A DNA stretch of 64,000 nt from assembly GCA_963842525.1 (NCBI GenBank), contig CAWJGT010000003.1, positions 1,152,001 through 1,216,000 of the forward strand, written 5' to 3'. Every line of letters starts with the position of its first letter. Positions within the stretch are counted from its first letter, which is position 1. The position numbers were made by a program, and so were the translations under genes. This stretch comes from an uncultured Holophagales bacterium (GTDB taxonomy: Bacteria; Acidobacteriota; Thermoanaerobaculia; Multivoradales; UBA5704). Under the pieces are notes generated by a model. That model was given only the letters and a program-made list of their open reading frames with translations, did no database searches and was not told the origin of the DNA. This document shows positions 55,820-60,650 of the stretch, piece after piece.

Positions 55820-57174
55820 TCACCATGCGGGGGTGGTGCTGGTGGAGCTGGCGGGCGTCGTAGGGCTGGCGGGCGTCGTAGGGCTGGCGGGCGTCGTAGG
55901 GCTGGCGGGCGTCGTAGGGCTGGCAGGCGTCGAGGGTCTGGTGGGCGCGGGCGCCGGCGTGCTCGGCGCGGGGGGGACGGCGCAGGCATGGTCAGCCTCT
56001 GGCTCAGGTCGCCGCGGCGCGCTGTTTCGGCCTGCGTCTGCGCGGCGAGGCGCGCGCGGCGCTCTTCCGTGGCGATGCGCATCTCGGCTTCGGGGTTGAG
56101 GGTGTTGACGCGGATGCGGTCGACGGCGCCCTGGCCCGCGAGGCGTTCGAGGGGCAGATAATCGGTCTTGAACACCAGCTCCACGGAGGAGCTCAGGTCG
56201 AGGTCGGTGTTCATCTCTTCCGTGGTCTGGGTGCGCTGGGTGGATACATAGCCGATGGTGTTCTTGACCTTCACATCCATACCCCAGAAGCTGGCCTTGG
56301 CTTCTGCTTCGTTGCGCAGGTCGAAGCTGCTGCCCCGATCGTCGGCCGCGGCGCTGCGGGTGTCGATATGGAAGCGCATGGCGGCATGCAGACGGCCGCT
56401 CTCGATGACGATCCGCTGCAGGCCGAGCATGACCATGGTGGAGAGCATCTGTTGGCGGTTGCGCGCGAGCGCGCCGCGGGCCATCGGCACCAGGCTTTCC
56501 GGATCGCCGCCGGGCAGCGCATCCTGGGGCCCCAGGCCGAGCGCCGTGCGCAACGCCCCTTCGGCAGGCATGGAGGCGCCGGGGCGCAGGCGCAGCCGCG
56601 TCCCGGCATCGCGCTCCTCCTGCTCCTCCGGCGTCAGGGGCTGGCCGGGCTCGGCGAACGGATCGCTCTCTCCTTCGACCACGAAGGCGCCGGGAAAGCG
56701 TTCGGCGAGCCAGCCGCGCGCGCCGTTCACGCCGACGTTGGCATCGGCGAACCCCTCGGTGGAGGCCGCCACGTTGCGGATCAGCTCCACGTACGAGCTG
56801 AGCTGCTGCTGGTTGGTGTCCACCAGAGCCTTGAACACGCCGGTGATCAGCTCGGTGACGAAGCGTGGAAAGGAGACCGCGTTGAGGATCTCCCGCGTGG
56901 TGCCGGCCACACGCTGGGGCGCGACGCCGCTGAATTCGCTGCCGGCGCTCTGGGCGCGGGCGAGCGCCGGGCGTGGTGGTGCCGTGGCAGTGGCGGCGTC
57001 GGACTCGGCGGCGAGCGCCAGCGCGGCGGAGCCGATCCTGACCAATCCCTGGGCGAGCTCGCGGCGCGTCGACGGATCGAGGCCCTGGAAGCCCGTGCTG
57101 GCGGTGAGCAGATCACGGATCGCGCCGCGCACCTGGGCAGGCGGTTGCTCCGGCCGTTCCAGGACGCCGGCCAT
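55820..57174 (-). CDS. Unknown family B protein 3 (homopolymer frameshift near 55970)
   Basis: VSFPRFV..RQQMLSTMVMLGLQRIVI..VELVFKTDYLPLE. The duplicate copy has G8 versus G7 here, restoring a TPASPT tail that ends at TGA 55820. Confidence 0.8.
55847..55933. repeat. 18-bp tandem repeat (coding TPASPT)
   Basis: GCTGGCGGGCGTCGTAGG, about 4.5 copies. Confidence 0.9.
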
Positions 57175-57178
57175 GGCG

Positions 57179-58114
57179 TCACCCGGCCAGGGCGGCCCAG
57201 GGGGATTCGCCGCGCGCCGGCGGCGGCGCAGGGGCTGCCGATTCGCCGAGAGCGAGCGAGGCCTCCAGCCAATCCACCGCCGCCGGGATTACAGGGTGAT
57301 TGAGGCTCACCAGCGGTTTGCCGCCCTGCTCCAGGAAGGGAGCGGCCTCGGCGAGCCAGGACAGGAGCGTCATGCCCGCCTGGCCGCGGCGCACGTGCAG
57401 CGCAGGATCCATGCGCGGCCGGCGCGCCAGGCGCGCGACCGCGGCCACCACGCCCCAGACGTCGCGCGCGCCGAAGGCGCTTTTCACGGCGCGGTGGGCG
57501 AGGATCGCCAGGGCCTGCTTGACGGCCGCCAGGACCTCCTGCGCCAGGAACACGGTGAGCCCGCTGCTGACGCGCACCAGGTTGGCCAGCAGCCGCTGGG
57601 CCGCGGCGCGCACCCGCGCCTGCTGCGCCACGCCGCCCCAATCCGAATTGCTGGCCTGCTCGTCGAGCTTGTAGAGGGCCTCGCACAGGTCGATCAGCCG
57701 GTCTTCGAATTCCCGGTTGGGCGGCTGCTCCGAGTGATCGATCCCACCCGGTGCGCCGAACAGCGCGGAGAAGAACCCGCGCCGCTCGGCTTCGTTCGCC
57801 CGCTCGTTGCGCTGCCGCCAGAGCTCCTGCAGGAGACGAGCCGCCTCGCCCAGGTCGACGGCAAGGCTGCCGCTGCGGGCGAGCCGCGTCAGCGCCTCCG
57901 CGGCGCCGAGCACGTCCGCATCCTCCAGCTCGGAGGCCAGATAGAGCGTGGCAATGGCGCGGAGCTGCGCCTGGTCCACGACCGCGCCGGCGGACGGCGG
58001 CAATTCGATGGCATCGATCTCGTCGAGGGCGAATGCAACGGTGTGCGCCTGGGCGACGAGCTGCTCGGCGCGCTGCAGGGCGATCTCGAGGGCGGGATCG
58101 AGGTCGCGGGTCAT
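57179..58114 (-). CDS. Unknown family A protein 2
   Basis: ATGA coupling to the upstream gene; EAERR, NREF and FGARDVW motifs shared with 61749..63470. Confidence 0.85.
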   Translation of the reverse strand: MTRDLDPALEIALQRAEQLVAQAHTVAFALDEIDAIELPPSAGAVVDQAQLRAIATLYLASELEDADVLGAAEALTRLARSGSLAVDLGEAARLLQELWRQRNERANEAERRGFFSALFGAPGGIDHSEQPPNREFEDRLIDLCEALYKLDEQASNSDWGGVAQQARVRAAAQRLLANLVRVSSGLTVFLAQEVLAAVKQALAILAHRAVKSAFGARDVWGVVAAVARLARRPRMDPALHVRRGQAGMTLLSWLAEAAPFLEQGGKPLVSLNHPVIPAAVDWLEASLALGESAAPAPPPARGESPWAALAG

Positions 58115-59331: not shown

Positions 59332-59351
59332 GATGTTTCACCTCCCTGCGG

Positions 59352-60650
59352 TCATTGGGCCGGCGTTCCCGGGGGGGCCGCCGGGGCGGCGCCGCCCGGC
59401 GCCTGCGGGGTGCGCGCCGAAGGCACCACGTTGGGATCGACCGGCTGCGAATGGCCCTGGATGGCGGCGATCATGCCGGGCGTCGCCATCTTTTCGAGCG
59501 GCAGGTAGTCGCTCTTGAAATTGACTTCCACGTTGCCGGCGAGCTGGGCGCGCGTCGTCAGCGTGGATTCGGAGGCTTCCGAAGCCGTGCTCATGGCGGT
59601 CATGATCGGTTTTTCGGCGTACTTGTACTTGCCCTTGGAGTAGTAGTCCGAATTCCATTCGGATTGGAGGCCCTTGTCCTTGTCCCACGAGCTCTTGCCA
59701 GTCCTCGTGCCGCCCCTGTCCCACTCTCCCTCGCGGTCCCGCGTCCGGGCGATCTGTCCGTCCTCGGTTGCATAGTCGTAGGCGGTGGCGCTGCGCGCGA
59801 GCTTGCGGGCGTCGCGGGCCTGGAAGTCGTACAGGATCTTGGCCTGGATCCGCCCGTCGGTGACCACGATGCGGTTGATGCCCATGAGCACCAGGCTTGC
59901 CAGGAGCTGCTGGCGCTGGCGCGCGAGCTGTGTGCGCGCGGCGGTGACCAGCGCGAGCTCCGCGGTCTCGTCCGACAGGTCCATGCTCTTCAATTGGCCG
60001 TCCTGGAAATCCAGCGCACCATTGACCCGGCGCAACGCGGCGCTGTCGTCCACACCGTCGCGCAGCCGCAGGCGCGGGCCGGGGCTGTCGGAAAAATCAT
60101 CCGTGCCGATCTCGAACAGGTCGGGGAATTTTTCCACCATGTGGTCGCGCCCCTGGTTGGGTGTGACATTGTCCTCGCGGAAGCTCTCCAGGGACTTGGC
60201 CACCTGCCCGACCATGTTGGAATAGGCCTCCATCTGCTCGATCGAGGACTTGACGATGGCATGGAAAACCCCTTCGATCAGGCCGGCGACGAAGGTCGGG
60301 AAGTTGACCTGCTTCAGGAACAGGTCGGCGACCGCGGCGCCTTCGCGCGCCGCGCCGGCCGCGAAATCCTTATTGCCGATATCCTCGACGGCCTCCCAGC
60401 CCTTCTCGGACGTAGCATCCACTTCGCCGGCGAGGGCGCGGGCGGGCGGCGCGCCGGCTCCGCCTGGCAAGGTGTTGCCGGGGATGCCTTCCGGCGCCGC
60501 CAGGTAGTCGGCGATCAGCGCCGTGTCGTGAGCGATCTGCTGCTGCTGGGCCGCGGGCAGGCTGGCAAACGCGGATGACCGGGTGAGCAGCGTCTTGACG
60601 GCCTGGCGGACCTCGGGTCGCGGCGTCGGCGCGGGAGCGGTGGCAGGCAT
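59352..60650 (-). CDS. Unknown family B protein 1
   Basis: VNFPTFV..RQQLLASLVLMGINRIVVTDG..VEVNFKSDYLPLEKMATP; GAGG RBS. Confidence 0.88.
   Translation of the reverse strand: MPATAPAPTPRPEVRQAVKTLLTRSSAFASLPAAQQQQIAHDTALIADYLAAPEGIPGNTLPGGAGAPPARALAGEVDATSEKGWEAVEDIGNKDFAAGAAREGAAVADLFLKQVNFPTFVAGLIEGVFHAIVKSSIEQMEAYSNMVGQVAKSLESFREDNVTPNQGRDHMVEKFPDLFEIGTDDFSDSPGPRLRLRDGVDDSAALRRVNGALDFQDGQLKSMDLSDETAELALVTAARTQLARQRQQLLASLVLMGINRIVVTDGRIQAKILYDFQARDARKLARSATAYDYATEDGQIARTRDREGEWDRGGTRTGKSSWDKDKGLQSEWNSDYYSKGKYKYAEKPIMTAMSTASEASESTLTTRAQLAGNVEVNFKSDYLPLEKMATPGMIAAIQGHSQPVDPNVVPSARTPQAPGGAAPAAPPGTPAQ

Follow-up and report, generated by a model that had tools for sequence, protein, structure and literature searches.

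The DNA analysed here is a window of 64,000 nucleotides (nt) from an uncultured Holophagales bacterium (GenBank assembly GCA_963842525.1, contig CAWJGT010000003.1, positions 1,152,001 to 1,216,000). Its minus strand carries an operon that encodes three paralogous proteins, which we call B1, B2 and B3, together with an S8 subtilase, two further proteins, A1 and A2, and a prenyltransferase-like (PT-like) protein. Each B protein is predicted to consist of a three-helix N-terminal domain (N-domain) of ~40 amino acids (aa), a variable disordered linker, a short conserved signature, and a core that follows the signature at a fixed spacing. The best reading of the signature, P-φ-A-x-A-(L/Q/M), is that it is a processing site for the S8 protease of the operon, a reading that draws on sequence comparison and structure prediction and that we hold tentatively. 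A precise candidate processing site gives experiments a place to start in this operon of about ten genes, which is so far unstudied and which unusually brings the subtilase together with a predicted DMATS-fold prenyltransferase and, in related loci, with a C70 protease domain and a protein whose N-terminus is Trypco2-like. If cleavage does occur, the emerging idea of effectors licensed by a protease would come to include N-terminal pro-domains and the simultaneous processing of several paralogous substrates.

A conserved signature in the linkers of the B proteins

B1 (59352..60659, minus strand) is 435 aa long when read from a GTG start codon, and its database copy (P0001, 432 aa) begins at Met4, position 60650. 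B2 (58111..59331, minus strand, 406 aa) and B3 (55820..57174, minus strand) are paralogues of B1, with 45% and 35% identity to it, respectively; the open reading frame (ORF) listed for B3 reaches 55168 only through a frameshift, described below. The original prediction that each B protein starts with a homologous helical segment of about 40 aa is confirmed by the alignment of B1, B2 and B3 and by an AlphaFold2 model of B1. This N-domain covers aa 15-54 of B1 (60498..60617), approximately aa 18-55 of B2 (59167..59280), and approximately aa 15-55 of B3 (57010..57132), all on the minus strand, with its limits taken from the modelled helices and invariant residues in B1 and from alignment with B1 in the other two proteins. 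Residues V17, R18, L24, L25, T26, F31, L34, A43, and I49 are invariant in the alignment of the three N-termini, and A73, R74, and A75 are also invariant across the three proteins of the window.

The B1 model was computed from a 33-row alignment and has a mean predicted local distance difference test (pLDDT) score of 61 and a predicted template modelling (pTM) score of 0.37. Helices at residues 15-27, 29-32, and 36-54 have block pLDDT values of 86-92. Linker residues 63-85 have values below 50, with a mean of 36 for the block 71-80, and nowhere in the N-terminal half of the model is confidence lower than in the stretch that holds the signature. The conserved core of ~300 aa is predicted to form a helical bundle, seen in the model at residues 85-266, and long β-hairpins, modelled at residues 269-381 with low confidence.

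Judged from their sequences, the B proteins form an uncharacterised and widespread family that is paralogous within a conserved operon. Among 8,000 database candidates scored, 1,784 are relatives of B1 at E ≤ 0.001, and a profile search at E ≤ 0.001 assigned 1,915 clusters at 50% identity to the family, which occurs in at least five phyla. B1, B2 and B3 have no match in Pfam (E ≤ 0.01), NCBIfam, PADLOC, or PHROGs. Several candidate relationships were rejected: the best PDB match to the B profile was cytochrome c1 at E 0.43, DUF2589 appeared as an Atlas lead with a below-threshold score of 0.76 in 16% of members, and Pfam Lant_dehydr_C gave weak, below-threshold matches (best E 0.026, in 9/33).

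For comparison, the best 80 of 406 related genome loci were used, which come from Pseudomonadota, Actinomycetota, Acidobacteriota, Cyanobacteria, and Bacteroidota. Sorted by position, their B genes comprise 80 of B1, 76 of B2, 72 of B3, and 63 of a further paralogue, B0. Linker logos were built with MAFFT for each paralogue group except B0 and show that the motif is kept in all three groups, so the worry that it might not be conserved in homologues does not apply to the B proteins. In B1 (n = 80) the logo reads P53 - x - A54/V22 - x (R37, Q14) - A62 - L63/M8 - A44, in B2 (n = 74) P40 - x - A64/S7 - x (R28, Q18) - A66/T7 - L45/Q21/M4 - A47, and in B3 (n = 71) P45 - L48/V11 - A62/S7 - x (R25, M8, L7, T7) - A64 - Q55/L9/M6 - N33 - A60 - G51. 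The information content of the alanine columns is 3.2-3.8 bits each, compared with 1.3-1.8 bits for the x between them. The motif had originally been described as ARA(L/Q)(A/S); its two alanines and the L/Q/M are conserved in the 80-locus logos, but the arginine sits at a variable position. The conserved signature is P-φ-A-x-A-(L/Q/M), and arginine is merely the commonest residue at the variable x.

In the window, translation and logos place the signature as P-A-R-A-L-A at aa 72-77 of B1 (60429..60446), V-A-R-A-Q-A in B2 (59101..59118), and L-A-R-A-Q-S in B3 (56947..56964), all on the minus strand. The shorter intervals first assigned to these sites, 60429-60443, 59101-59115, and 56947-56961, do encode ARALA, ARAQA, and ARAQS on the minus strand, but the full six-residue motifs need one more upstream codon.

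Enrichment of the motif was measured against a null model of shuffled linkers, with 200 shuffles for a set of close B1 homologues (115 of 119 parseable) and 500 for a diverse set of representatives at ≤50% identity (131 of 150 usable, with N-domain, linker, and core). ARA occurs in 73 of the 115 close homologues, where the shuffles gave a mean of 5.1 and a maximum of 13, while A.A[LQM] occurs in 97 of the 115 (shuffle mean 12.1, maximum 23). In the diverse set A.A[LQM] is found in 60/131 sequences (shuffle mean 21.1, maximum 32) and a relaxed motif in 94/131 (shuffle mean 54.6, maximum 71). The motif is strong in orthologous operons and weaker, yet still enriched, in the deep family.

Motif discovery by expectation maximisation (EM) was applied to 219 pooled linkers from which the core-proximal 38 residues had been trimmed, because uncut linkers contain the core anchor (L/V)xxA-V-x-F-P, which EM then returns. 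The pooled search yielded A-[RQL]-A-[LQM]-[ADE]-[DEG] with a log-likelihood of 666, compared with 125-150 in ten shuffles; run on single paralogue groups, EM returned group-specific conserved stretches and not the pooled signature. Scanning with the pooled position weight matrix shifts the register at many B3 sites, for example to P-L-A-M within PLAMAQ, so that its count of 29/71 is an underestimate, and the B3 site counts were taken from the MAFFT logos in its place.

Among the 80 loci, the linkers differ greatly N-terminal of the motif, both in length and in sequence. Between the motif and the core anchor (V-x-F-P) the spacing hardly changes, with an interquartile range of 48-49 aa in B2 and a median of 34 aa in B3. 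An aromatic residue after the motif is also conserved in the logos (F/Y/W in B1, F in B2, and F/Y in B3). The N-domain itself is almost exclusive to B proteins: when its profile was compared with every plus-strand ORF in the 80 loci, 315 of the 336 rows returned were B proteins. The best of the 21 non-B rows is a fragment in a degenerate cluster (locus L077; E 1.2e-5), and the rest have E ≥ 0.05. Therefore, the N-domain is not an adaptor common to S8, A1, A2, or the PT-like protein.

The S8 subtilase as candidate processing enzyme

The window contains the 3′ part of the S8 gene (63503..64000, minus strand), a 166-codon fragment that is truncated at its 5′ end by the edge of the window and that matches Pfam Peptidase_S8 at E 2.5e-20. 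This fragment holds the SGNNG sequence with the oxyanion asparagine and the GTSFAAP sequence with the catalytic serine. Full-length homologues are ~480 aa long, and D178, H230, N335 (the oxyanion asparagine), and S396 are invariant in 36/36 aligned sequences. Among proteins of known structure, the enzyme is closest to AK.1 protease, thermitase, intracellular subtilisins, and PatA/PatG domains. The gene order S8 - A1 - PT - B1 - B2 - A2 - B3 is constant in the 80 loci, and S8 itself is present in 72/80. Eight loci lack it, and in seven of these the contig breaks off within A1 or shortly before it. The eighth, from Cupriavidus necator A5-1, is the degenerate L077 cluster, the only locus with a full upstream flank but without S8 or A1; its A2 is split, its B3 has lost the N-domain, and its B1 site reads V-R-P-L, a single case.

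In the mechanism that we propose, the operon's S8, acting in the cytoplasm, would bind the signature as an extended strand, in which alanine would occupy P4 and P2, L/Q/M would occupy P1, and the variable residue would lie at P3, which is exposed. Cleavage could just as well fall one residue earlier, A-x-A↓. N-domain and linker would be released together as a pro-segment, with the N-domain perhaps inhibitory until then, and the freed core would gain a defined new N-terminus that licenses it for what comes next, which is probably oligomerisation by way of the β-hairpins. We infer this cut, its enzyme, and its register from several observations. The short conserved site in a disordered, variable linker, its fixed spacing to the core, and tight synteny with a catalytically intact S8 all argue for processing by S8. 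In a subtilase cleft the P4, P2, and P1 residues of the substrate are buried and P3 is exposed, and the conserved-variable-conserved-conserved pattern of the signature fits a strand in such a cleft. Most B0 paralogues lack the N-domain, which indicates that the core can exist without it, and a minority of them nonetheless retain an AxA[LQM]-like site, as counted below.

The original prediction had likewise interpreted the motif as a protease site, and conservation, linker disorder, core spacing, and the synteny of S8 lend support to that interpretation for the B proteins. Its further instance, MAKALAS at the start of the PT-like protein, fell away: none of 64 homologous N-termini (first 12 aa) carries A.A[LQM], so the resemblance is due to chance. 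The accompanying analogy to PatA-type subtilases holds by function only, with S8 scoring 94.1 bits against the NCBIfam PatA/PatG model TIGR03895, short of its cut-off of 421. S8 also does not reach the cut-off of the type VII secretion mycosin model TIGR03921 (144.2 bits, cut-off 278.75).

The A-x-A within the signature also looks like a signal peptidase I site under the -3/-1 rule, and the N-terminal region of the B proteins could accordingly be read as an export signal. This is highly improbable. No signal peptide was found in S8 or the B proteins. Within the first 85 aa of the B proteins, hydropathy peaks at only 0.79-1.43 (Kyte-Doolittle, 15-aa windows), and we reject the reading on this lack of a hydrophobic h-region. 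Furthermore, the motif lies ~70 aa into the protein, behind a folded amphipathic helical domain, and the residue that follows A-x-A is itself conserved as L/Q/M.

What a freed core might build is suggested by fold comparison. Foldseek searches with the B1 model gave template modelling (TM) scores of ≤0.21 in the PDB library, with phage matches at 0.08-0.21, and 0.15-0.23 for the top viral match. The weak matches include the anthrax PA pore, aerolysin, lysenin, FliF, and tail parts (lower collar and tail knob) of phi29, Andhra, and P68, all proteins in which oligomeric barrels are built from long β-hairpins. That the hairpins of B proteins assemble into an oligomeric barrel, ring, or tube is a lead from these models rather than a finding.

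Several points weigh against processing of the signature by S8. The junction behind the N-terminal region of S8 itself, read in two sequences (loci L006 and L001), lacks the motif. In the deep relatives the strict motif covers only 60, and the relaxed motif 94, of the 131 representatives. With a pLDDT of 61 and a pTM of 0.37, the B1 model is too weak overall to reveal what the N-domain does relative to the core, and the β-hairpin region is polar and charged, without the alternating pattern of a membrane β-barrel. Related loci encode a second protease domain, Peptidase_C70, and also, directly upstream of S8, a protein with a sub-threshold Trypco2-like start that could be the real substrate of S8, following the precedent of Pepco. 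Finally, the fixed spacing between motif and core is equally expected if the fold of the core simply begins with the motif.

This last point, together with conservation that runs from the motif directly into the core, is what favors an uncut signature that opens the mature fold or the assembled oligomer, for instance as a strand or cap, with the N-domain as a permanent accessory or interaction domain. The monomer model would be blind to parts that become ordered only in an oligomer. However, the pLDDT is lowest exactly at the motif, the linker before it is highly variable, and the N-domain is wholly absent from most B0 proteins, and we judge this arrangement to be unlikely.

The points about other proteases concern genes that would lie beyond the window edge in the present DNA. 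In related loci the operon extends upstream of S8 (for example, positions 49-7051 in L006). This part comprises genes for a ~1,100-aa protein with Peptidase_C70 and DUF3238 domains and for the B0 paralogue, an 81-aa ORF, and a gene for a ~263-aa protein with a Trypco2-like start and sometimes a TIG domain. The Peptidase_C70 (AvrRpt2-like) domain is found in 48/80 loci, with a Pfam E of 5.3e-21 in L006. The ~263-aa protein is encoded directly upstream of S8, and its N-terminus resembles Trypco2 in 12/26 members at 16.6-22 bits; these matches always cover profile positions 2-44 and lie below the Pfam PF19631 gathering score of 24.2, so the relationship is a lead only. The B0 proteins usually start PPPP...ALARDAFGREI (for example, L006 3350-4579). 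An AxA[LQM]-like site stands behind a short N-terminal peptide in 15/63 of them, and an xFGx motif, which we take to be reminiscent of the AvrRpt2 cleavage consensus, occurs in 38/63. A tie between xFGx and C70 was considered and rejected: C70 is matched in 33/38 loci with xFGx but also in 12/15 with the AxA-like site, so the two do not discriminate.

With these genes in place, the signature could be the cleavage site of an enzyme other than S8, either the C70-domain protein or a housekeeping protease, and S8 would instead process its Trypco2-like neighbor. Sites of AvrRpt2-type proteases are PxFGxW-like. The A-x-A-(L/Q/M) signature is unlike these, and the xFGx that does occur is in B0. S8 is also the more frequent of the two proteases (72/80 loci versus 48/80 for C70), although contig ends account for part of this gap. 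Pepco and Trypco proteins are described as substrates of adjacent proteases (bioRxiv 10.1101/2025.11.14.688446), which suits the position of the ~263-aa protein beside S8, but all of its Trypco2 matches, at 16.6-22 versus 24.2 bits, are below the gathering score. Overall, cleavage of the signature by another enzyme appears quite unlikely, and S8 remains the enzyme that we prefer.

The prenyltransferase, the A proteins, and neighboring genes

The remaining genes of the operon are at least as constant as S8, with counterparts of the B and PT-like proteins and A2 in all 80 loci and of A1 in 79. A1 (61749..63470, minus strand) has 573 aa, and A2 (57179..58114, minus strand) has 311 aa when read from the ATG at 58112-58114. 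This start codon overlaps the stop codon of B2 (58111-58113), which suggests translational coupling. By eye, the A2 sequence resembles the C-terminal part of A1. Neither these two proteins nor the PT-like protein has a match in Pfam, NCBIfam, PADLOC, or PHROGs; the best Atlas score for A1, 0.76, is a lead only.

For the PT-like protein (60675..61721, minus strand) the AlphaFold2 model has a pLDDT of 93.8 and a pTM of 0.90. It shows a PT-barrel with five ββαα repeats and matches CymD, DMATS1, and PriB in Foldseek (E 1.5e-12, TM about 0.72; 0.72-0.73 for CymD). From this model the protein can be assigned confidently to the DMATS/ABBA prenyltransferase fold. The B proteins could be its substrate, and should the enzyme act on them, it would add a new chemistry to the post-translational modification of bacterial proteins.

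In another reading, the signature would be a short linear docking motif, bound by a partner but never cut, through which, for example, the prenyltransferase recruits a protein substrate or A1 and A2 assemble with the B proteins. The motif is conserved within a disordered linker, as a docking motif would be, and conserved aromatics follow it. The PT-like protein and A2, in 80/80 loci, and A1, in 79/80, co-occur with the B proteins at least as tightly as S8 does, and the confidently modelled PT-like protein keeps numerous Arg, Tyr, and Glu positions invariant, which would suit an active enzyme. In contrast, the alternation of conserved and variable positions and the small residues of the signature suit a protease cleft, and the N-domain is dispensable in B0. 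We regard docking without cleavage as somewhat unlikely.

Cleavage and prenylation could also act in sequence. S8 would cut first, the DMATS-fold prenyltransferase would then prenylate the new N-terminal region or a nearby aromatic, and B1, B2 and B3, until then soluble pro-proteins and now lipid-tagged, would co-assemble with A1, A2, and B0 into a ring or tube at the membrane, a cyanobactin-like logic applied to whole proteins. This fuller scheme is distinctly improbable, but if true it would mean that bacteria prenylate proteins under the control of a protease, and the operon would be an effector or nanomachine of a new kind. The literature, searched by topic and not by accession, yielded no account of the operon, and the 10-kb flanks examined contain no sensor (STAND, Avs, or similar).

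Downstream, the end of B3 is affected by a homopolymer. The listed ORF at 55168-57174 fuses B3 in frame to a MaoC/RipB-like hydratase through a run of seven cytosines on the coding strand (G7/C7 at 55970..55976), where the B3 frame is lost. A partial duplicate near 50598 has C8, and C8 restores a P/A/S/T-rich B3 tail with a stop codon at 55820-55822, like the tails of B3 homologues. The fusion is therefore not real and reflects a 1-nt deletion or an assembly error. In the corrected frame, an 18-nt tandem repeat of 5.6 copies (55847-55947) encodes the repeated PTTPAS units in the tail of B3, and repeats are likewise seen in the tail of a homologue from Bacteroidota (L053). At the C-terminus of some B3-type proteins there is a class I S-adenosylmethionine (SAM) methyltransferase domain, in 2/80 loci (L001 13464-15614 and L077 13391-15064) and in 3/24 long representatives scanned (P0167, P0206, and P0236). 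B3 in the window lacks this domain.

The duplicate belongs to a segmental duplication (48925-50695 and 55167-56067) that takes in the 3′ end of B3 and the MaoC gene with the intergenic region. The duplicated MaoC proteins are 93% identical, and one stretch of 98 nt is 100% identical. Between the copies lie ORFs for TPR (52927-55095), CHAT (51810-53174), and PIN-like (50402-51427, plus strand) proteins, and this segment looks like an inserted island. The TPR, CHAT, PIN-like, and MaoC genes have no counterpart in the 80 related loci, and the adjoining TPR and CHAT genes were rejected on this basis (0/80) as a source of the cluster's protease.

Comparison with known protease-substrate systems

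Cyanobactin pathways, with PatA/PatG proteases and PatF-type enzymes, likewise encode an S8 protease with an ABBA-fold prenyltransferase and place a short recognition sequence between an N-terminal leader and the part that is retained. In contrast to their short precursor peptides, the B proteins are 406-435 aa long with a folded conserved core, and the PT-like protein resembles the DMATS, CymD, and PriB indole prenyltransferases. The possible removal of a helical N-domain from a protein that assembles into a large oligomer also recalls HK97-type capsid proteins, whose N-terminal scaffolding (delta) domain is removed by the prohead protease. However, the B proteins have no PHROGs match, their weak Foldseek matches are to phage lower-collar and tail-knob proteins and not to capsid folds, and the protease belongs to another class.

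A closer likeness is with proteases that activate latent effectors. The S8 protease HET-Q2 cuts the gasdermin HET-Q1, with a reported site at F238-A239 (PMC13475620). As in this pair, and in bacterial gasdermin-protease pairs, the operon combines an S8 protease with a latent protein from which a terminal segment would presumably be removed. Unlike HET-Q1, the B proteins have no gasdermin domain in Pfam, the segment would be N-terminal and not C-terminal, and the signature is A-x-A-(L/Q/M) in place of F238-A239. Membership of the cyanobactin, mycosin, or gasdermin systems is ruled out by the model cut-offs, the form of the precursors, and the lack of a gasdermin domain.

In prokaryotic defence modules, Pepco/Trypco1-2, EACC1, MBL-fold, and α/β-hydrolase effectors are the targets of a trypsin-, caspase-, or subtilisin-like protease encoded next to them, with the Pepco/Trypco β-barrels activated by site-specific cleavage (bioRxiv 10.1101/2025.11.14.688446). 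Like these modules, the operon places a protease gene beside proteins that belong to no recognised enzyme family, has a short conserved site, and, in related loci, encodes a protein whose start shows sub-threshold similarity to Trypco2 directly upstream of S8. The effectors in the described modules are predicted or shown to be oligomeric β-structures; for the B proteins the corresponding evidence is a weak fold lead (TM ≤0.25). The presumed removed piece here would be an N-terminal folded domain and linker, whereas in Pepco it is a C-terminal tail. The operon also differs from defence modules in its three or four paralogous putative substrates, in the addition of a DMATS-fold prenyltransferase and two A proteins, and in that the B proteins match no PADLOC model. 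An adjacent intact protease (72/80 loci, with catalytic residues invariant in 36/36 sequences) and a conserved site in an accessible region, the hallmarks of a protease-activated effector module, are nevertheless both found. By analogy, the operon would appear to work most like the defence protease-effector modules and the HET-Q2/HET-Q1 pair.

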